A stretch of 9,713 nt of DNA from a virus. Its lineage: Duplodnaviria > Heunggongvirae > Uroviricota > Caudoviricetes. The notes under the pieces were generated by a model. The model was not told the origin of the DNA. It worked only from the letters and a program-made list of their open reading frames with translations, and did not search any database. Position 1 is the first letter of the stretch, and the number at the start of each line of letters is the position of its first letter. Shown here in pieces: positions 398 through 9,713 of this stretch. The position numbers were made by a program, and so were the translations under genes. The stretch covers positions 1 to 9,713 of the IMG/VR virus record IMGVR_UViG_2737471860_000011; one strand, given 5' to 3'.

Positions 398-465
398 TCG
401 GGTCCTTCCTGGAATTATGGCCCGTTACGGGGCGGCGACCTCGCGGTTTTTCGCTATTTATGAGC
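398..465 (+). other. Lambda-type cos site, copy L (cosQ-like, cosN 430-441, start of cosB), plus orientation
   Basis: Contains GGGTCCTT...GTTACG followed by GGGCGGCGACCT and CGCGGTTTTTCGCTATTTATGA. This matches the phage lambda genome ends (right end ...GGTTACG, left end GGGCGGCGACCTCGCGGGTTTTCGCTATTTATGA) as recalled from memory. Confidence 0.75.
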
Positions 466-658: not shown

Positions 659-1099
659 TTAACTTTGCTGTTCTGTAACGACTGATTGTTCCATGCTGGC
701 ACGGCGAACGCTTACGGCATGACGCCACCCAGCCAGAAAGCCAGCCATTTTATTTCGTGCCTTGCTCACATCTTCCGGTGAATAGCCGTAAATCTGCAAA
801 CCTTCATCAAATCGATGTTCTGTTTCTTCACTGGAGTACTCGTCACGCTCAGATGAAAGCAGCCTGGCAAACATAATTTTTTCCAGCGCACTGGTTTCTA
901 CGTGATATCTGATGGCCTCAAGACGGCTTTTACCTGAAGACCAAAGCAATGTATGCCCGATGTGATAACCGCCAGACTTTCCGCGATCCGCATTAAGATA
1001 CGGCATCCCCTGTTTGGTCCATGCGCGAATAGTGGTTCTGTTAACCTTGAAATGTTCAGCTATTTCCTGCTGACTTACAAAACAAGCTTTATCAATCAT
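659..1099 (-). CDS. Terminase small subunit Nu1-like protein / candidate PICI Rpp-type packaging-redirection protein (146 aa)
   Basis: N-terminus SQQEIAEHFKVNRTTIRAWTKQGMPYL parallels lambda Nu1 KKQLADIFGASIRTIQNWQEQGMPV (winged HTH). ATG at 1099-1097 with AAGGT Shine-Dalgarno; start lies about 90 bp downstream of cosN copy R in the lambda cos-to-Nu1 arrangement. Confidence 0.8.
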   Translation of the reverse strand: MIDKACFVSQQEIAEHFKVNRTTIRAWTKQGMPYLNADRGKSGGYHIGHTLLWSSGKSRLEAIRYHVETSALEKIMFARLLSSERDEYSSEETEHRFDEGLQIYGYSPEDVSKARNKMAGFLAGWRHAVSVRRASMEQSVVTEQQS

Positions 1100-1165: not shown

Positions 1166-1233
1166 GTCATAAATAGCGAAAAACCGCGAGGTCGCCGCCC
1201 CGTAACGGGTCCATATGCCGGAAAGGACCCGCA
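1166..1233 (-). other. Lambda-type cos site, copy R (cosN 1189-1200 on minus strand), canonical position upstream of the Nu1-like gene
   Basis: Reverse complement reads GGGTCCTTTCCGG...CCCGTTACG, GGGCGGCGACCT, CGCGGTTTTTCGCTATTTATGA. About 90% identical to copy L in inverted orientation; cosN 12-mer identical to lambda. Confidence 0.8.
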
Positions 1234-1687: not shown

Positions 1688-2023
1688 TTATCGCGCCAGC
1701 GGCTGAACAGATACACCAGAACCCGCAAAGGCGGCGCATTTTTTCGCGTCAGTGTCGGCGCTCTCAGGCCAGTTAACGGCGGCAATATTGAATATCCCCG
1801 TCTTGTAACACTGTGCTGACTTCTGCTTTGACGTGTCCACGGGGTACGAAGTCAGATAAACAGCCTTGCCAGATTCCTGACCATCCCACGGCTTAAACTC
1901 GCCATTGTCCGCCAGCATCAGCGGGGTAAATTCCTGAATAACGCCAGCATCAGCGGCAAAATGTACCAGTGTCGTGGATACCTGCTGACTGCCTGCAAAT
2001 AACTCAATGTATGGAGTGTCCAT
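1688..2023 (-). CDS. Head decoration protein, lambda gpD-like (111 aa)
   Basis: TPLMLADNGEFKPWDG and YKTGIFNIAAVNWPESADTDAKKCAAFAGSGVSV parallel lambda gpD TPLMLDTSSRKLVAWDG and [35 protein letters not shown]. ATG at 2023 with GGGGGA Shine-Dalgarno, 11 nt after capsid stop. Confidence 0.85.
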   Translation of the reverse strand: MDTPYIELFAGSQQVSTTLVHFAADAGVIQEFTPLMLADNGEFKPWDGQESGKAVYLTSYPVDTSKQKSAQCYKTGIFNIAAVNWPESADTDAKKCAAFAGSGVSVQPLAR

Positions 2024-2034
2024 AGAATCCCCCG

Positions 2035-3090
2035 TTAACCAATTTTGACGGTAACAAATTTGCGAATATCTGCCGGAACCGGCTGCGGTGCGCTGTGTGT
2101 CTGCACGTACTCAATCGCCGGATCGCCGTCCTCAATCCAGTTTTTCGGGTAGTACATGTTTTGCGTTGCGCCCGTTCTTACAGCTTCCTGATCCATAATC
2201 GCACCATAGGCCACCAGACCTTTGTTGTTGGTGTTGCCCAGGACCAGTAAATCAGGCTCAAGGAAATATTTTTCGGTGCCGTCGCTGTCAGTGTATTTGC
2301 CGGAATAGACGATAAGGGCAATATCGCCCAGATAGCCTTTAAAGCTCACCACTTCGCCCAGGTTTTTACAGGCCAGTTCTGCGGCGGATTCTGAACCACG
2401 GGAAAGATCGTACAGTTCGCGGAATTTTTTAAAGCTGCGTAACGTTCGCCATACCTCAGCGCCCATAATCATGACGTTGGCGGGGCAACCTGCTTGATCT
2501 GCGTATAGTTCGATATCATAGATTGGATCATGGGTTTCTTTGTCCTGCTCTGACCATTTACGGCCTTTGGCCTGCTCTATGATGTTTTTTTCCGGTATCT
2601 TCCAGTCGATTTCATAGCGTTCTATGCCTTCGCCCTCAATGATGTTTTTTCCGGTCGTTACCGCATTCACCGCCAGCCATTCCACGCGTGCCTTAATGGC
2701 GTTTATCTGGCGGCGCATGTTGCCAGTAATCAGGCGCATACGTCGGTAGGTAGGATCGTTAAGCTGTGCCGGATCTTCTCCAGCCATGCGCATGATGGTT
2801 TTTGTTGGATCGATTTCGTGCTTTGGCTTCATGTAGCCAGGTTTAATCGTGCTGGTTTCGTACCCTTTATCGCGCTGTACCTGGCTACCCACCATAGGCG
2901 AACAAAACGCAGACATGGTAACTTCTTCGGTATCCAGGTTATCCAGCATGATGTTTTGCGTGTTGAATGTCGCTACTTTCGGGAAAAACAGCGACGTAAA
3001 CAGTGGACTGAATTTAAATTCCGAAATATCCCCGCGATTCAGGTATCTGAAAAGCTGGTTAGTGTTAAGTGCCGTTGCTTTGCCTGTCAT
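2035..3090 (-). CDS. Major capsid protein, lambda gpE family (351 aa)
   Basis: KFSPLFTSLFFP, KPGYMKPKHEIDP, DPTYRRMRLITGNMRRQ and C-terminal YPKNWIEDGDPA match lambda gpE (KFDPLFLRLFFR, TPGYVKPKHEVNP, DPAYRRRRIIMQNMRDE, YPKNWVTTGDPA). Strong GGAGGTG Shine-Dalgarno 4 nt before ATG at 3090. Confidence 0.9.
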   Translation of the reverse strand: MTGKATALNTNQLFRYLNRGDISEFKFSPLFTSLFFPKVATFNTQNIMLDNLDTEEVTMSAFCSPMVGSQVQRDKGYETSTIKPGYMKPKHEIDPTKTIMRMAGEDPAQLNDPTYRRMRLITGNMRRQINAIKARVEWLAVNAVTTGKNIIEGEGIERYEIDWKIPEKNIIEQAKGRKWSEQDKETHDPIYDIELYADQAGCPANVMIMGAEVWRTLRSFKKFRELYDLSRGSESAAELACKNLGEVVSFKGYLGDIALIVYSGKYTDSDGTEKYFLEPDLLVLGNTNNKGLVAYGAIMDQEAVRTGATQNMYYPKNWIEDGDPAIEYVQTHSAPQPVPADIRKFVTVKIG

Positions 3091-3296
3091 TATTCACCTC
3101 CATGAGTCTGATTCATGCCCAGCGCCGCACGTAAATAGGCGCGTACCTGCCAGCCTGTTGACGGCTCAACCATCGCCAGCGGCTCAAGTCCTGCCGCAAT
3201 GCCTGCTTTTACGTTCTGCTGGTGGCGTTCCTTGAGCGCCTCCACGATGTCTGGGCTTATGTAAACTGTCACCCCGCCTTTTTTCTCTTCTGCCAT
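3090..3296 (-). CDS. Hypothetical small protein (68 aa) translationally coupled to the major capsid gene
   Basis: ATG at 3296 with AGAGGA Shine-Dalgarno about 10 nt upstream; its TAA stop overlaps the capsid ATG (TAATG). The track ORF begins at a GTG (3329) inside the promoter palindrome, which is less likely. Function unknown. Confidence 0.45.
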   Translation of the reverse strand: MAEEKKGGVTVYISPDIVEALKERHQQNVKAGIAAGLEPLAMVEPSTGWQVRAYLRAALGMNQTHGGE

Positions 3297-3547: not shown

Positions 3548-3970
3548 TTAAAACGGTATGTTATCCCCGTACGGATCATCGTTACCCGCCTGTTGTTTTG
3601 CCCTGTTCAGTGCGTCAGTAGCCTGGCCCTGTTGACCTTTTTTGCCGCCCAGTCGCGCCGTTCGCGCACTGATTACACTGTCTGCGATAACCTGCCAGCC
3701 CTGCCGCGTTTCTCCGTTCTGCCCAGTCCACTGGCTGATCTGCATGTTACCCGCCACGCTCAGGAGTTCACCCTTGCGGTGCCTTTCCAGTGCTTCGGCC
3801 TGTCTGCCAAATGCCAGGACGGATAACCACATCGTCGCCGTTCCGTCATCTGCCTGGCTGCACGGAAGGGGGACCGCCATACGCGCCAGCGTCATCGGTG
3901 TGCCCTTGCTGGTGGTCTTTAACTGCTGGTCAGCCACCAGCCGCCCGTAAGCCGCTATCTGTGCTGTCAT
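3548..3970 (-). CDS. ssb: Single-stranded DNA-binding protein (SSB) homolog (140 aa)
   Basis: OB-fold signature WLSVLAFGRQAEALERHRKGE...QWTGQNGETRQGWQV parallels E. coli SSB [21 protein letters not shown]...KWTDQSGQDRYTTEV. Gly/Gln-rich linker and C-terminal tail ending DNIPF (E. coli SSB ends DDDIPF). ATG at 3970. Confidence 0.8.
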   Translation of the reverse strand: MTAQIAAYGRLVADQQLKTTSKGTPMTLARMAVPLPCSQADDGTATMWLSVLAFGRQAEALERHRKGELLSVAGNMQISQWTGQNGETRQGWQVIADSVISARTARLGGKKGQQGQATDALNRAKQQAGNDDPYGDNIPF

Positions 3971-4033
3971 GCTGTCTGTTCTCCGGTTTTAACGTTGATA
4001 GTTACGCTTGTTTACACCCTTACGGTGAAATTC

Positions 4034-4158
4034 TGCGGGTTATAATCGCACTTTTGCGGGTTATAACTGCCATTTTGCGGGTTACGTGCGGGTTATTGAT
4101 TTCCTTTTTATTCATACAGTTAATTCACTTATACACAGGATAACCCGCATAACCCGCA
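4034..4158. repeat. Iteron array, putative replication origin
   Basis: Direct repeats of TGCGGGTTAT/C at 4034-4043, 4055-4064, 4076-4085 (21-bp phasing) and 4087-4096; AT-rich spacer 4097-4139; two inverted copies ATAACCCGCA at 4140-4149 and 4149-4158. Immediately 3' of the primase-helicase gene. Confidence 0.7.
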
Positions 4159-4181
4159 ACTTTTCACCTCACACAGGGTAG

Positions 4182-6305
4182 TTAATCTTCTGCCTCAGGC
4201 TGGAACATCATCACGTAAAAAACATGCTGCTTACCCCCAATTTTGCCGAGCGCCTTTTTCTTGTAACGGCGATCGTTACCCGCTTCCAGCATTCCGGCAG
4301 CACTCAACGCGCGGGCAAAGTGAGACGGATTAAATCCCTGTGCTATCTCACCCTCAAACACATGAGGAAACGTGTAAAAACGGAACTCATCATCTTCATT
4401 TCTGATACTCCCCTTTCTGTATCCGGCAAGGTCTTTAATCGGTAAATCACGCTCATCACTGTTTGGGTAAGGAAGGTATCGACTGAACCCGAACGACGAC
4501 AAAAACGCCTCAGCCTGTTCAACCATCTGTTTAAATTCCCTGTTACCCGTGCCGAACTCCTTCACCCAGGCATTAAAGTTATGCTGTATTGCGTCCCGGC
4601 ATTCCTGCGCGGCCCAGCCAGTTACATGACCGGAAAGCACAAGCGCAGCCTCCAGTATGGCGAAACGCTCCCCCACGCGGTGGACCTGCTCGCCGTAGCT
4701 ATCCGGTATCAGGTTGCGCCACCGTTCGCGGCATTCCCTTACCGTATCCTTTGCCTCCTGCTGGTGGTCTGCCAGCCATTTAACCCATTCACGACCCGCC
4801 GCCCCGTGATTTTCTGTCCAGGCATCTTTTAACGCGTCTGCGTGCGCCTTTCCGGTGCTGTATTCGTGAAATTGCGTGGCTTTTTCCATCGGAACGTTAA
4901 GCAGGCGGACAAGCTGCCCCGCTTTGACTTTTATCCCCTCCGTTTTGAGGAATGTCTCAACGTCCATTTCTCCGGTGCTGATTGCCACCGTGCGCCAGTG
5001 TTTTATCTCCCGGTTGCCGCCGTCCTTCGCCCCCTGTAATTTCCCGGAGCCGTTAAACAACGTATAGGCTGACGTGGACACCTCCCGCGCGTTTCCGGCC
5101 TGACCTATTTCATCCAGGGGTAACAGCCCGTCGTTGTGTGCCTCTGCCTCGTTGGCGATACCTAACGCCGTTCCGTACCAAGTAAGCCGTTGTGCGTCCG
5201 GCTCTCCCCATAAACTTGATGCGATGTTCTGCGTGGTGGTTTTCCCTGCCGATGACTGTTCGAAAAGATGTACCCCGAAGCCGTCAGCACCAACAAGGCC
5301 AATCAAAGGTGCTGCCAGTGACGTGGCAACACCCAGCATCATGGACGGATTGCCACCAGCCAGCCGCGCCACGCTGTCACGCCAGCCCTCCGCCGTACCC
5401 GCAACCGAATAGCCATTAACAGCGGCACTTTTTCCGGTAAACAGGATCGGTTTTTCAGAATCACCAATGATTGAACCGTCCGGCATGATGTACGCGCCAA
5501 AATGCCAGCCCGTTGTTGTGCTTAACTGCCATTCCTCATGGCTTCCGCTTAACTGCATCCAGTCAGCCAGGATAGCCCTGTATTTGCCGTTTGTTGTCAC
5601 ATTCAGCCCGTGATCTTTAAGCAACCGCCAGCCGTCACGGTCGCCAATGCCACCACACGGGATCGCCATTGTGATGACTTCATGGTTTGCTAATTTTTTC
5701 CAGCGCATCACGCGGTAATGCTCTTTACCGATCGTCCCCGTTCCCAGTAGTTCAAGCGGAGAACATAACCACGTCTCAGGCCGGATAATTTCGCCTGACT
5801 GCTTATCCACTTTGGGCGTTACCCAGAAAACACCATCGACGCGACTTTCAACGCGGGGCTTTAATTCATCATCCTGATAGCATGGCTCTTTTTTCTTTAC
5901 AGGCAGTTCAACTACCTTTTTCTTTTCCGCCAGCTCTCCCCGCTCACGCTCCAGATATTCGCGCCAGTTCTCCCGTTTCTGGCTGTGCATTCCTTCAGGG
6001 TAATAATCAGCATCCCTGACACCTGCCGCTGCCAGTTTCTGCCCGATGGTATTAACAAGCCCCGGACGCAATAACCCCGCCTGATAGAGACGCACGCGAT
6101 AGCGTCCGTCCGGTACGATTTGCAGGTTGTCCAGTTCGACAAGTTGTTGCTCTCCAAGCCAGACAGGTGGCACGTTATCGCCAGCCAGTCGCCCGTCCTG
6201 TTCCTGCCACTGTTTCGCATGTGCCCACGCATCACTACCCGCAAAAATGATGACTTCCGTCATTTTGTCACGCGGCTGGTGTTTTAAATTTGGCGCTTTT
6301 TTCAT
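4182..6305 (-). CDS. Replication initiator, fused primase-helicase (P4 alpha-like / DUF927-type, Pri-Rep), about 707 aa
   Basis: Large ORF with a P-loop-like motif (FEQSSAGKTT); position downstream of AlpA and directly upstream of the iteron array. Preferred start is the ATG at 6305 with GGAGAG Shine-Dalgarno, rather than the upstream GTG at 6320. ATG overlaps the stop of the preceding ORF (ATGA). Family assignment is from overall resemblance and context, not a domain search. Confidence 0.8.
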   Translation of the reverse strand: MKKAPNLKHQPRDKMTEVIIFAGSDAWAHAKQWQEQDGRLAGDNVPPVWLGEQQLVELDNLQIVPDGRYRVRLYQAGLLRPGLVNTIGQKLAAAGVRDADYYPEGMHSQKRENWREYLERERGELAEKKKVVELPVKKKEPCYQDDELKPRVESRVDGVFWVTPKVDKQSGEIIRPETWLCSPLELLGTGTIGKEHYRVMRWKKLANHEVITMAIPCGGIGDRDGWRLLKDHGLNVTTNGKYRAILADWMQLSGSHEEWQLSTTTGWHFGAYIMPDGSIIGDSEKPILFTGKSAAVNGYSVAGTAEGWRDSVARLAGGNPSMMLGVATSLAAPLIGLVGADGFGVHLFEQSSAGKTTTQNIASSLWGEPDAQRLTWYGTALGIANEAEAHNDGLLPLDEIGQAGNAREVSTSAYTLFNGSGKLQGAKDGGNREIKHWRTVAISTGEMDVETFLKTEGIKVKAGQLVRLLNVPMEKATQFHEYSTGKAHADALKDAWTENHGAAGREWVKWLADHQQEAKDTVRECRERWRNLIPDSYGEQVHRVGERFAILEAALVLSGHVTGWAAQECRDAIQHNFNAWVKEFGTGNREFKQMVEQAEAFLSSFGFSRYLPYPNSDERDLPIKDLAGYRKGSIRNEDDEFRFYTFPHVFEGEIAQGFNPSHFARALSAAGMLEAGNDRRYKKKALGKIGGKQHVFYVMMFQPEAED

Positions 6306-6601
6306 TTCTGCTCTCTCCACGCGGCAATCATGTTTTTCAGTTCCTGTAGTTTTTTATCCACATCCACACGTGACACATGGTTATTTCTGGAAGTCGGGAT
6401 TTCCCGCCGGAATCTACAAATAAAGATCTCCACGTTCAGCGAACTAAGAAATGAATAGCCATCACGGATAAAATACACACGGTCAAACATCAGTTCTTTT
6501 ACCGTTACTCTGTTACCGTTCTTATCCAGATAAATAGCGCCGGGGATAATTTTGGGGTGTGCATAACCGCTGGCAGTCAAGCCAGATAAATACGTTCTCA
6601 T
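6302..6601 (-). CDS. Hypothetical protein (99 aa), translationally coupled to primase-helicase
   Basis: ATG at 6601 with GGGGA Shine-Dalgarno; TGA stop overlaps the primase ATG. About 38% GC in a sampled 100-bp stretch, lower than the primase gene. No family recognised. Confidence 0.55.
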   Translation of the reverse strand: MRTYLSGLTASGYAHPKIIPGAIYLDKNGNRVTVKELMFDRVYFIRDGYSFLSSLNVEIFICRFRREIPTSRNNHVSRVDVDKKLQELKNMIAAWREQK

Positions 6602-6607
6602 GATTAC

Positions 6608-6928
6608 TTATCCCCGATTTGAATCAGTATTCGCTTTCTTTATGGCATTTAACGCATCTGTGGCATTTTCAATGGTGCACCGTAACGAAATATCAAACTG
6701 CCCAAGCATTGTCAGTAACAAACCGATATTCCCCATGTCAATGCGCATAGCCTTTTCGTCATATTCCTTATTTTCTGACGCATACCACATCAGGCTACCA
6801 ATTGACGCAACAGCCATTGATATATTGTCAGTAGCCGCATCCGCAGCAGAATAAACCTTTTTAGCAATATCATGCTCACAGTTAAAATGCGGATTAATCA
6901 GGTACTGGTAATTTGACATATCAGGCAT
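6608..6928 (-). CDS. Hypothetical protein (106 aa)
   Basis: ATG at 6928 with GGGGG Shine-Dalgarno; 6-nt gap to the next gene. Low-GC like its neighbour. No family recognised. Confidence 0.55.
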   Translation of the reverse strand: MPDMSNYQYLINPHFNCEHDIAKKVYSAADAATDNISMAVASIGSLMWYASENKEYDEKAMRIDMGNIGLLLTMLGQFDISLRCTIENATDALNAIKKANTDSNRG

Positions 6929-7124
6929 GGCACACCCCCTGACGAATACGGGCAGCGAATACCATCACGCAGCCAGCCGGGGATTGCTGGCGTGCTTCCT
7001 GTTCGCTGCTGGCCTCAATGGTAATCACGCGCGGTTGTGCCGTACTCAGGGCGATAAAACGCCAGATGTATTTATTCAGGTTGTGCGAGTCCAGCCCTTG
7101 CGGGTGTGTGGTATGATTTCTCAT
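6921..7124 (-). CDS. Hypothetical small protein (67 aa), first gene of the replication operon
   Basis: ATG at 7124 with GAGGT Shine-Dalgarno 5 nt upstream; 8-nt overlap with the next gene start. The track ORF 6921..7862 (313 aa) is rejected as one CDS; only the 3' 68 codons have a ribosome-binding site and sit downstream of the promoter. Confidence 0.4.
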   Translation of the reverse strand: MRNHTTHPQGLDSHNLNKYIWRFIALSTAQPRVITIEASSEQEARQQSPAGCVMVFAARIRQGVCHA

Positions 7125-7222
7125 AGCTACCTCGATACTCTTGCTATCGTTGGTGGTTAGACGCCCTGCATGTGTTGCGAGCACTGCGGGGCGTTGCTTA
7201 ATTTGAGTGACAAAACTCAAAC

Positions 7223-7302
7223 TGTGCGCACAGATTAAAATCATGTGTGCGCACATGTCAATACTTAACATCTCATTTTTTTTGCTGTATTGTGTGCGCC
7301 CA
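7223..7302. promoter_or_regulatory. Divergent promoter region with three operator palindromes (TGTGCGCACA)
   Basis: Perfect 10-bp palindrome at 7223-7232 and 7246-7255; one-mismatch copy TGTGCGCCCA at 7293-7302. Minus-strand promoter: -35 TTGACA (7261-7256), 16-bp spacer containing O2, -10 TTTAAT (7239-7234), with O1 at about +1. Plus-strand promoter: -35 TTAACA (7265-7270), 17 bp, -10 TATTGT (7288-7293), with O3 over -10/+1. Confidence 0.6.
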
Positions 7303-7329
7303 TAAAGTCCATTTAAGTGAGGTGCATCA

Positions 7330-7527
7330 ATGTCTAGCGGTAACACAAACAACAAATCAGCAAAGAAAAATATTCGATTCCCACATGAGCTTATAGATGG
7401 GATTGATGCCAGCGTTGAACAAGAAAAATTAACTAATCCTAGTGCTAATTTTTCCGCATGGGTCTTAGATGCCTGTGGACGCAAATTAAAATATGAACAG
7501 CGCCGGAAGGCCAAAGAATCAGAATAA
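7330..7527 (+). CDS. Arc/Mnt-like ribbon-helix-helix transcriptional regulator (65 aa), candidate repressor of the replication operon
   Basis: NIRFPHELIDGIDASVEQE...NFSAWVLDACGRKL parallels P22 Arc NLRWPREVLDLVRKVAEENGRSVNSEIYQRVMESF (beta-strand then two helices). GAGGTG Shine-Dalgarno 6 nt before ATG; divergent from the operon across the operator palindromes. Confidence 0.65.
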   Translation: MSSGNTNNKSAKKNIRFPHELIDGIDASVEQEKLTNPSANFSAWVLDACGRKLKYEQRRKAKESE

Positions 7528-7584
7528 TCACTATCAGCGCCGTGGTGTGAGTAACTACGGCGCATTGCTATGCAGGACAACACA

Positions 7585-7758
7585 ATGACCGATAAAGAAT
7601 TGACCAAAACATTATCACCGGCACGGAAAAGACGGCGCAGAAAGATAGAGCATGAATCAGAAAGATTCGCACCTTGTTCGTTTGCTCTTGAGAAATTCCT
7701 TAAAGAGCACAGGAAAAAGCTCTCGTTGCAAACCTTGGGACGAACCAAATCTGACTGA
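7585..7758 (+). CDS. Hypothetical small arginine-rich protein (57 aa from ATG 7585; track ORF starts at 7570)
   Basis: AGGA about 8 nt before ATG 7585; contains ARKRRRRK. Sits between the RHH gene and a plus-strand terminator. Weak support overall. Confidence 0.3.
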   Translation: MTDKELTKTLSPARKRRRRKIEHESERFAPCSFALEKFLKEHRKKLSLQTLGRTKSD

Positions 7759-7825
7759 TCACATTGCCCACCAGCCGCAAATGTGGCATTGTTGGTGATG
7801 CGTTCAAGTTTAGTGTGTATCCATT

Positions 7826-7851
7826 GGCGACCGCCCCCGGTCGCCTTTGTT
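7826..7851 (+). terminator. Rho-independent terminator of the plus-strand regulatory transcript
   Basis: GGCGACC gccccc GGTCGCC hairpin followed by TTTGTTATATAT on the plus strand; no U-tract on the minus strand. Confidence 0.6.
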
Positions 7852-7872
7852 ATATATGTCATATGCTCCCCT

Positions 7873-8082
7873 TTACGCTGCCTTACCTGAATTAATGCGA
7901 TCCCGGCTTTTAACCCATTCCATAACCTCGGACAGCAGCCAACCTACAGAACGCCCACCAAGATTACGGCGAGACGGAAAGCTCCCTTTTTTCTCCAGTT
8001 CGTAGCGTGTAGTGCGACACACTCCAGTTAACTTACGACATTCATCCTCACGGATTACGCGATCTTCATTTATTTCACGCAT
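7873..8082 (-). CDS. alpA: AlpA / P4 Vis-family transcriptional regulator (69 aa; track ORF extends to a GTG at 8169)
   Basis: ECRKLTGVCRTTRYELEKKGSFPSRRNLGGRSVGWLLSEVMEWV matches the AlpA pattern (HTH, then KxGxFP...LGGRSV.W...E...W). ATG at 8082 with AGGT Shine-Dalgarno; adjacent to and co-directional with the integrase. Confidence 0.8.
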   Translation of the reverse strand: MREINEDRVIREDECRKLTGVCRTTRYELEKKGSFPSRRNLGGRSVGWLLSEVMEWVKSRDRINSGKAA

Positions 8083-8474
8083 ACAAAAACCTACATAAAA
8101 ATTACGTATATAAACTTTTCTCTTAGCTGTAGATATATGAGATCGGATATTACTTAGATTCTTTTTCACCTCTTAAATTAAAAACACAACCATGCTAAAG
8201 GCTTTGTTCGCTAAGGTTCGTAGAAGCTCGTTAGTGTTTAAAATCGTGTCACGAGTTTTTAAGCGACGCAACAAAAAAATGTCTTCATTTTGCATGACAC
8301 TTGAATTATCTCATTAAAAACAAATAGATAAACCATCAAGTGTTGGAACAATCAAGAAACAGAGAATAAAAACCCAGAAGACGACATTCCAATTAAGATA
8401 TTTGCAGATATTTTCCGATATTCTACGATTTATTCACGGCTGTAATCTCTTAAAGAAAAAACAGCCGTAATTTG

Positions 8475-9713
8475 TCAATAATTTTGGGTGTAAATTCGCG
8501 GGGTCATAACAACGATTTTTTCATCATTGTTCTGGAGAAGCTCGAGACGGTCTACCCATAGATTAAGAGCGTCACGCTTTGCATCGAGATAACGGGAGTG
8601 GTTATAGACGCGTTGCATTCCTGGCATCTGGTGGGCAGTAAGCTGTTCGACAATATGCGGATCCACGCCTAAATCGTTCAGCATGGTTGTAAATGTGTGC
8701 CGGATGTCGTGCAACGACCAGGGGGCTTGATTAATGCGTCTGTGTGCCGTTCTTCCGTACTCTGCTACGGATGATTGCCCTTTCAGTTCTCCAAGCAATA
8801 AGCCCGTGTGCCTGTTCTGCTCCACCAGCTTCATGACGAACGGCAAGATCGCTTCCGGTATTGGCCTGAATATTGCTACCTTCGTTTTGCTGTGTTCTTT
8901 CGGCACAGTCCAGAGCATTTCTTTAAAATCCCATTCCCGAACCTCGGAGCGTCTTAGCTCAGTGGTACGGCATCCGAAGACAATCAGAAGGCGAATTAAA
9001 GCGCTGTAGTACGGCGGGAAAATTTTTTCATCCAGTGCGCGGAGTAGCTCGCCAAGCTCCTTGTTTGTTAGCACTCGCTCGCTTATTTCTGCTTTTTTTC
9101 CCACATCACCTACGACCATATCATCAAGAACGTTACTGACGGCGTAGCGACGTTTACGGCAGTACTTAAGCGCCTGTTTGCATACCTGCAACAAAAAGCC
9201 GGCTGATACCGGATTACGCTTAGCAAGCTGGTCAAAACAGGCCAGCCAGTGGCGTAGCTCGCATTTATCCAGCGGCATAGCACCAATCTGGCTGATTATG
9301 TGCTTATTGATACGGCTTTTCAGTGATTCGTGGTCAGTGCGCTTTTCCTTCGCATACGACTCAAGCCAGTAAGTGAGCGCGTCCTTAACCGTCACGGGGG
9401 CTAACGCTTCCTGCACTGTGTGATTAAGCTCATGGCGTGGATTTTTCCCCTCCGCCAGCCAGGCGCGACACTGTGCCGCTTTTTCCCTGGCTGCTTTCAG
9501 GCTCAGATCGGGATAGTTGCCCAGTCTCAGGCGTTCCGGTGATACCTGCCTGCCAGTTCCGGCCCTGTAAGTGAAATACCAGGTTAACAGGCCGCTAGTG
9601 GAATGTCTTACGCTAAGATTGCCACCGTCATTAAAAAAGGCGTTTTTTGTGGTTGGTGATCCGCTTAATTTTCGTAAAAGAGTGTCGCTAAGTCTATGAA
9701 TTGCGCTGCTCAT
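8475..9713 (-). CDS. int: Site-specific tyrosine recombinase, P4-type integrase (412 aa; start codon is the last 3 nt of the window, possibly 5'-incomplete)
   Basis: N-terminal LSDT...DGGNLSV...YFTYR...LGNYPDLSLKAAR parallels the CP4-57 IntA N-domain. C-terminal catalytic signature HDIRHTF (H-x-x-R) and VYNHSRY (tyrosine nucleophile). Confidence 0.9.
   Translation of the reverse strand: MSSAIHRLSDTLLRKLSGSPTTKNAFFNDGGNLSVRHSTSGLLTWYFTYRAGTGRQVSPERLRLGNYPDLSLKAAREKAAQCRAWLAEGKNPRHELNHTVQEALAPVTVKDALTYWLESYAKEKRTDHESLKSRINKHIISQIGAMPLDKCELRHWLACFDQLAKRNPVSAGFLLQVCKQALKYCRKRRYAVSNVLDDMVVGDVGKKAEISERVLTNKELGELLRALDEKIFPPYYSALIRLLIVFGCRTTELRRSEVREWDFKEMLWTVPKEHSKTKVAIFRPIPEAILPFVMKLVEQNRHTGLLLGELKGQSSVAEYGRTAHRRINQAPWSLHDIRHTFTTMLNDLGVDPHIVEQLTAHQMPGMQRVYNHSRYLDAKRDALNLWVDRLELLQNNDEKIVVMTPRIYTQNY

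Follow-up and report, generated by a model that had tools for sequence, protein, structure and literature searches.

A candidate iteron origin directly downstream of the DUF927 initiator gene of a Gram-negative PICI

The 211-bp intergenic region at positions 3971-4181 of the DNA analysed here (a stretch of 9,713 bp, referred to as the window) is, on our analysis, very probably the vegetative replication origin of a Gram-negative PICI. It lies between the gene for a DUF927 protein, the putative initiator, and an SSB gene, and holds six exact copies of TGCGGGTTAY within 125 bp. The first-pass annotation had taken four direct copies, an AT-rich stretch of about 43 bp and two inverted copies for an origin bound by its initiator. 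All of these elements are present where they had been placed, and the interpretation is supported by the PICI nature of the element, by published precedent, by an array geometry conserved among related loci and by co-variation of the repeats with the C-terminal domain of the initiator. The plan of such origins is known, and the evidence supports the region as a candidate origin of the DUF927-type replicon of Gram-negative PICIs.

The start-to-start spacing of the four direct copies, obtained both by reading the sequence and with a repeat finder, is 21, 21 and 11 bp. The parts of the array are as follows.

4034-4043, 4055-4064 and 4087-4096, plus strand: distal iterons, exact copies of TGCGGGTTAT
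4076-4085, plus strand: distal iteron, exact copy of TGCGGGTTAC
4034..4096, plus strand: the distal iterons as a set, four copies in the orientation opposite to that of the doublet and spaced 11, 21 and 21 bp in gene orientation
4097..4139, no strand: AT-rich spacer, 43 bp, predicted DNA-unwinding element
4140-4149 and 4149-4158, minus strand: inverted copies, ATAACCCGCA, forming the proximal iteron doublet (4140..4158)

Since all real genes of the window are on the minus strand, the order of the array is to be read in gene orientation: the DUF927 stop codon (4182-4184) is followed by 23 nt, the doublet, the AT-rich spacer, the four inverted copies, a further 63 nt and the SSB start at 3970. 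On the gene strand the doublet reads TGCGGGTTATGCGGGTTAT; its two copies have one base in common, so that their spacing is 9 bp. With spacings of 9, 11 and 21 bp, all six iterons fall roughly on one face of the helix. The array thus has two and four exact, opposed copies around the AT-rich spacer, within the plan of PICI origins, which have at least two per side. When one mismatch was allowed, the whole 9,713-bp window yielded a single further site, at 1718-1727 in the decoration gene, and none of 200 dinucleotide-preserving shuffles reached the resulting 7 matches (shuffle mean 1.23). The spacer has a GC content of 28%, against 48.7% for the window, which places it in the lowest 3% or so of the window's 43-mers; by nearest-neighbour free energy it is among the roughly 1% least stable windows and is, together with one other stretch, the least stable DNA of the window.

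The window is part of an EcCICFT073-type Gram-negative PICI, a phage satellite of Enterobacteria; the ends of the island are cut. The genes and sites that identify it are the integrase, AlpA, DUF927, SSB, capsid E and decoration D genes, a terS-like HTH gene and two lambda cosN sites.

8475-9713, minus strand: integrase
7873-8169, minus strand: AlpA (PF05930)
6921-7862, minus strand: 313-aa protein with a repressor-like C-terminus
6302-6601, minus strand: DUF4222
4182..6320, minus strand: DUF927 protein of 707 or 712 aa, the initiator gene
3548..3970, minus strand: SSB gene of the replication module, first gene past the candidate origin (Pfam SSB, E=9.3e-14; TIGR00621 above cut-off)
2035-3090, minus strand: lambda-E-type major capsid protein
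1688-2023, minus strand: lambda-D-type decoration protein
659-1099, minus strand: small HTH/terS-like gene
430-441, plus strand, and 1189-1200, minus strand: exact lambda cosN 12-mers, GGGCGGCGACCT, opposed and on either side of the 659-1099 gene

The two cosN copies mark the island as packaged by lambdoid helpers, and they bear on one alternative for the array. Since sites for terminases or recombinases may likewise consist of repeats around an AT-rich core, the array could in principle be a cos or pac packaging site, or an attachment or recombination site. The lambda cosN 12-mers are located elsewhere, however, near the terS-like gene, and EcCICFT073 is likewise reported to carry its own cos1 and cos2; the integrase is 4 kb off at the island end, and it is at island ends that att sites belong. 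As described below, the repeats moreover track the C-terminus of the helicase. We regard a packaging or attachment function as very remote, and the packaging-site interpretation was rejected outright because of the cosN sites elsewhere together with the co-variation with the helicase.

Of 5,426 complete E. coli genomes, 733 have a match to region 3900-4300, the best of these at 99.5% identity. For the whole window, no match both near-identical and near-full-length was found among these 5,426 genomes; the most extensive spans 88% at 90% identity, and the highest identity, 96.5%, is reached over only 64%. The islands that match the origin region best carry a module of HK97-type capsid, portal and terminase genes, which indicates that the replication module is common to classical and capsid-forming-type islands. 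An SSB gene one or two genes past the origin is also found in EcCICFT073, EcCI042 and cf-PICI-like islands. The phage and plasmid collections held no close copies of the candidate origin, only distant DUF927 relatives, and Rfam and tRNA scans of the window gave no match.

Two of these E. coli islands, L001 (strain 042, NC_017626.1, 2.23-2.26 Mb) and L002 (APEC37), are capsid-forming-PICI-like. Their initiator-origin-SSB module is 97.5-99.5% identical to that of the window and is joined to a block of HK97-type capsid, protease, portal, connector, HNH and terminase genes, where the window has lambda E and D instead. In strain 042 the island sits within a prophage terminase gene.

The window also contains seven Chi sites (GCTGGTGG) in 9.7 kb, at 3218, 3908 and 4760 on the plus strand and at 3934, 5353, 7768 and 8822 on the minus strand; the mean in shuffled sequences was 0.28, and 0 of 200 shuffles reached seven. 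An opposed pair (3908 plus, 3934 minus) lies inside the SSB gene, no more than 60 nt from its start, at a distance of about 95-125 bp from the last iteron. A Chi site is also located right past the first iteron array in six related loci (L003, L004, L010, L013, L014 and L020). Their function may be to shield satellite DNA, when replicating or linear, from RecBCD.

PICI origins are located directly 3' of the initiator gene and always comprise two sets of iterons around an AT-rich region (Fillol-Salom et al. 2018, ISME J, PMC6092414). The first-pass annotation had noted that the array occupies this position, and the published rule bears it out: the first repeat begins 23 nt past the DUF927 stop, and placement directly 3' of the initiator is the same in 20 other loci and in EcCICFT073. 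For EcCICFT073 the function of such a region is established, in that a pri-ori plasmid replicates only with both pri and ori intact (PMC6092414). We located EcCICFT073 in the CFT073 genome and read its origin there directly. It shares with the window the order int, alpA, DUF4222, initiator, origin, then SSB, capsid E and decoration, as well as lambda cos sites, and has in addition a small ORF before SSB and a PerC gene. Soon past the initiator stop, CTGTCTACC occurs twice, 9 bp apart, followed by an AT-rich gap and inverted copies of the GGTAGACAG type; in both elements the AT-rich gap between the doublet and the inverted copies is about 40-45 bp.

There are also distinct differences. The EcCICFT073 repeats are CTGTCTACC/GGTAGAYA, compared with TGCGGGTTAT in the window, and its intergenic region is longer (288 bp), with more sites and a second, mirror-image array of six sites. 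The EcCICFT073 initiator is a 584-aa 'DNA primase family protein' with an unrelated core, and only its N-terminal 150 aa or so are shared (51% identity), so function is carried over to the window by design and position and not by orthology. It should be noted that it is in EcCICFT073 that replication has been tested; the origin of the window is a predicted one. EcCI042 was not retained as a direct comparator, as it has a third type of initiator, a RepA-family helicase.

A scan with the DUF927 protein, restricted to one genome per species, gave 20 further loci at 55-75% identity, from Escherichia albertii, Serratia, Rahnella, Pantoea, Yersinia, Citrobacter, Cedecea, Pectobacterium, Winslowiella, Tenebrionibacter, Apirhabdus and others. 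The array geometry is kept in every locus with a readable gene end, which makes 21 loci, the window included, from more than ten genera. In the conserved plan, two or three tandem copies at 9-bp spacing, at about +22 to +45, are followed by an AT-rich gap and by three or four inverted copies spaced 11 and 21 bp, in some cases with a further 21 bp. The tandem doublet or triplet sits at +21 to +27 past the stop in all 21 loci; typical positions are about +25 and +34 for the tandem copies and about +97, +108, +129 and +150 for the inverted ones. In every one of the 21 the core array has six sites, arranged as 2+4 or 3+3. The repeat itself differs by lineage, with seven sequences that fall into about six classes, listed here with the loci that carry them and, for four of them, the terminal hairpin of the initiator.

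GCGGGTTAT: the window; terminal hairpin RRYKKKALGKIGGKQHVFYV
GTGGGTTAT: L004 and L019; terminal hairpin GRYKKKALRKMGGKQHVFYV
GGGAYAAGT: L003, L007 and L018; terminal hairpin WQIRTPRLKH..AR...Y
CGTGGTTCA: L005
GTTGGTTCA: twelve genome loci and a 12-kb circular record; terminal hairpin RGYQRKSPRIDGRQINVYV
YCSGGTTCA: L016

Close relatives of the window's own class give a finer view of the same array. The exact doublet was found in 35 viral contigs, and in 34 of these it is directly past a primase gene whose product ends in RRYKKKAL..IGGKQH.FYV. The one contig with a doublet and no primase gene (L059) was rejected as an origin; there the doublet lies in repetitive, tail-fibre-like coding sequence and is a chance match. 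Across 29 unique sequences of this class, polymorphism affected 9 of 40 iteron columns lying outside the search pattern, compared with 34 of 66 spacer columns (Fisher p=0.004). The AT-rich spacer in particular varies in sequence among close relatives, with 23 of its 43 columns polymorphic. That the repeats arose by chance, or are neutral and without function, has nothing in its favour other than the short length of the unit; it is opposed by the shuffled sequences, by a geometry kept across genera while the sequence changed, and by the conservation of iteron columns relative to spacer, and its probability is negligible.

About half of the loci have a second, roughly mirror-image array of six sites (1+2+3), which is absent from the window. 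It was seen in L004, L005, L007-L009, L012, L015-L019 and L022, about +160 to +320 past the stop, and also in L027, L029, L035, L049 and L058. In this array a single inverted copy is followed by two direct copies with a spacing of 21 bp, then by an AT-rich gap and three tandem copies 9 bp apart, after which comes GTTTTGTTTATATA. The window and L003 are without it and have SSB directly next. The single-array 'half' origin of the window might be less efficient than the origins of its two-array relatives, or might work differently. A conserved CTGGCTGG(T/C) motif is present past the first array, at about +150 to +175, in most relatives (L003, L008, L010, L012-L017, L020, L022 and L061); it is an exact Chi site in some relatives and is absent between the iterons and SSB of the window. 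L061 (NZ_CP148430.1), the 12,152-bp circular record, comes from E. coli and was deposited as a plasmid. It is in fact a satellite-like element, with integrase, Icd-like, antirepressor and PerC genes and a TOPRIM-DUF927 initiator, and with a 3+3 GTTGGTTCA iteron origin directly past the initiator gene. It is probably a satellite in an excised, circular or replicating state, which is no more than suggestive of autonomous replication by such a module.

Phage P4, a satellite of enterobacterial phages, provides the precedent for another function of such repeats. Its alpha protein joins replication functions to a C-terminal winged-helix domain that binds the origin; the winged helix reads 8-bp repeats in both orientations, and ori and crr, the two separated sites that alpha binds, have these octamer repeats in common. 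The array of the window could accordingly be an auxiliary cis site for initiator binding, like crr, with the true origin elsewhere in the island, and the existence of relatives with two arrays might be seen in the same light. P4, however, requires two cis sites kilobases apart, whereas the window has a single cluster in 9.7 kb and otherwise only the lone one-mismatch site in the decoration gene. The second array of the relatives, moreover, is adjacent to the first, not distant. With no second cluster in the window, which is part of the island, a P4-like auxiliary site is quite improbable. P4 alpha and its cis site are also mentioned in the Gram-negative PICI study (PMC6092414).

The putative initiator is a protein of 712 aa if translation starts at the GTG at 6320, or of 707 aa from the ATG at 6305. 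The latter start, overlapping with the stop codon of DUF4222 upstream, is the more likely; the annotated homologue in APEC37 is 2124 nt long. A Pfam scan of the whole protein found DUF927 alone (residues 173-440, E=7.9e-48). The protein matches PHROG 1139, 'DNA primase' (E=7e-180), PDB 8tch, the SaPI replication initiator/helicase (E=2.8e-15), PDB 5dgk (Cch) and, below the curated cut-off, NCBIfam Cch1 (E=1.9e-10). The gene had been labelled a primase-helicase at first pass. The helicase half of that label holds, given the core resembling DUF927, Cch and SaPI Rep proteins. The primase half is not borne out by the searches, as no primase domain was recognised in the N-terminal 170 aa in searches of NCBIfam and PDB or in the whole-protein Pfam scan, which leaves the PHROG family name as the only basis for 'primase'. 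The N-terminal 150-170 aa (5811-6320, minus strand), which matched nothing in Pfam, NCBIfam or PDB, are the segment shared with EcCICFT073 Pri, whose helicase core is unrelated, and other DUF927 relatives have TOPRIM/zinc-ribbon N-termini in place of this domain; the segment is a mobile module.

The other end of the protein is of more direct concern to the iterons.

4185..4511, minus strand: predicted winged-helix iteron-recognition domain, about 109 aa (residues ~604-712)

The last 170 residues were modelled with AlphaFold2 from 46 aligned sequences; the model had a mean pLDDT of 69.8 and a topology of three helices followed by strand-strand-helix-helix-strand-strand. Structures that it matches are a wHTH-DNA complex, the SaPI Rep C-terminal domain and Cch. 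With moderate confidence, then, the C-terminal domain is predicted to be a winged helix like the iteron-binding domain of SaPI Rep.

The last 560 residues of 17 full-length proteins were aligned, and pairs with the same repeat class were compared with pairs of different classes. Same-class pairs exceeded different-class pairs in identity by 0-0.09 over residues 152-600 and by 0.25-0.40 over residues 604-712. Repeat class thus co-varies only with the last 100 aa or so of the initiator, and the most class-specific stretch of the alignment is the terminal hairpin. Physical linkage of the 3' end of the gene to repeats 25 bp away, inside a single recombination cassette, could be a partial cause of this co-variation. 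However, the rest of the locus does not follow repeat class: the 'MKxAPN' N-terminus is paired with five repeat classes and TOPRIM-type N-termini with the GTTGGTTCA class; SSB is directly downstream in both the window and L003, despite their different classes; and the window's own class occurs in three different downstream contexts. That N-terminal type and downstream context shuffle independently of class speaks against linkage alone as the explanation. Class co-variation and the modelled fold together support the C-terminal domain as the part predicted to specify the iterons. The 8tch and 5dgk matches, the modelled fold and the co-variation are all in keeping with a Rep-type helicase whose C-terminal winged helix is tied to the iterons.

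The co-variation also bears on a possible regulatory function. The array has a co-oriented gene on either side, with the SSB start 63 nt downstream, and could be an operator array through which the initiator or another island regulator controls transcription of SSB and the capsid and packaging genes, with no replication start; plasmid iterons bound by their initiator often also serve in autoregulation. Yet a scan of 3900-4300 found neither a sigma-70-like promoter nor a terminator, the AT-rich gap and opposed repeat sets fit the plan of an origin and not that of a typical operator, and the repeats co-vary with the C-terminal domain of the helicase and not with a regulator. In EcCICFT073, moreover, the same position and design are functionally tied to replication (PMC6092414). 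We therefore judge an operator that replaces the origin to be improbable; a secondary regulatory role of the array is possible.

The candidate origin resembles those of iteron plasmids (pSC101, R6K, RK2, F and P1) in that helix-phased, initiator-bound repeats are found beside an AT-rich unwinding element. Plasmid iterons, however, are 17-22 bp long and usually lie in one orientation on one side, whereas those of the window are 9-10 bp long and opposed around the AT-rich region. Plasmid Rep proteins are winged-helix initiators without helicase activity that need DnaA, DnaB and DnaC, whereas the initiator of the window is itself a helicase. A sequence matching the DnaA-box consensus TTATNCACA, namely TTATACACA, is present at 4129-4137 (plus strand), at the edge of the spacer beside the doublet. 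It was found in 26 of 35 same-class sequences, with variation at the N position, and in none of 21 loci of other classes, EcCICFT073 included. A DnaA-dependent, plasmid-like origin was considered; this match is specific to one class and is not a feature of the family.

The SaPIs offer a closer parallel. Their origins have 6-12 iterons directly downstream of rep, with at least two on each side of an AT-rich centre and in opposed orientation, and these are recognised by Rep, a hexameric helicase that loads itself, through its winged-helix C-terminal domain (PMC9371898); the underlying work on the SaPI origin and Rep is that of Ubeda et al. 2007 and 2012, as cited in PMC9371898. The SaPIs differ in having Gram-positive hosts and shorter iterons, of 5-6 nt compared with 9-10 nt here. 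Regulation also differs, with the Stl repressor in SaPIs and the AlpA activator here, and most SaPIs have their primase as a protein of its own.

The mechanism that we consider most likely resembles that of SaPI Rep and would run as follows. Upon induction, the DUF927 protein, which is homologous to two self-loading helicases, SaPI Rep and SCCmec Cch, would be made, and its C-terminal winged helices would bind the six 9-10-bp iterons, two of them gene-proximal and four distal and opposed. Binding on both sides would strain and melt the 43-bp AT-rich spacer, and the helicase ring would load itself onto the melted DNA. The SSB encoded downstream would then coat the single strands and so stabilise the bubble, and host polymerase would take over. 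With no primase domain detectable in the initiator, we can only infer where the primers would come from.

Architecture and function of this kind are already in the literature, since 2018 for Gram-negative PICIs and for longer in the case of SaPIs, and current understanding is unchanged by the present case. A text search of the literature for the exact repeat and doublet returned only unrelated primer matches; the iteron sequences of PMC6092414 appear in a figure (Fig. 2a). The constant six-site module and the swappable C-terminal hairpin are testable additions and come as no surprise. We raise tentatively, as an idea more doubtful than not, that the fixed six-site module corresponds to a hexameric self-loading helicase, with one iteron for each subunit, and that the C-terminal hairpin is a swappable specificity cassette. 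If this were true, one module would template one hexamer; half origins like that of the window would fire with one, perhaps unidirectionally, and twelve-site origins would load two. The C-terminal 'wing' cassette would then set replicon incompatibility among co-resident satellites.

The finding locates the predicted origin of a satellite replicon that is very common in E. coli. The roughly six iteron classes, paired with six C-terminal 'wing' sequences, amount to a ready specificity table, which could guide work on the incompatibility of satellite replicons or the design of orthogonal helper-dependent vectors.
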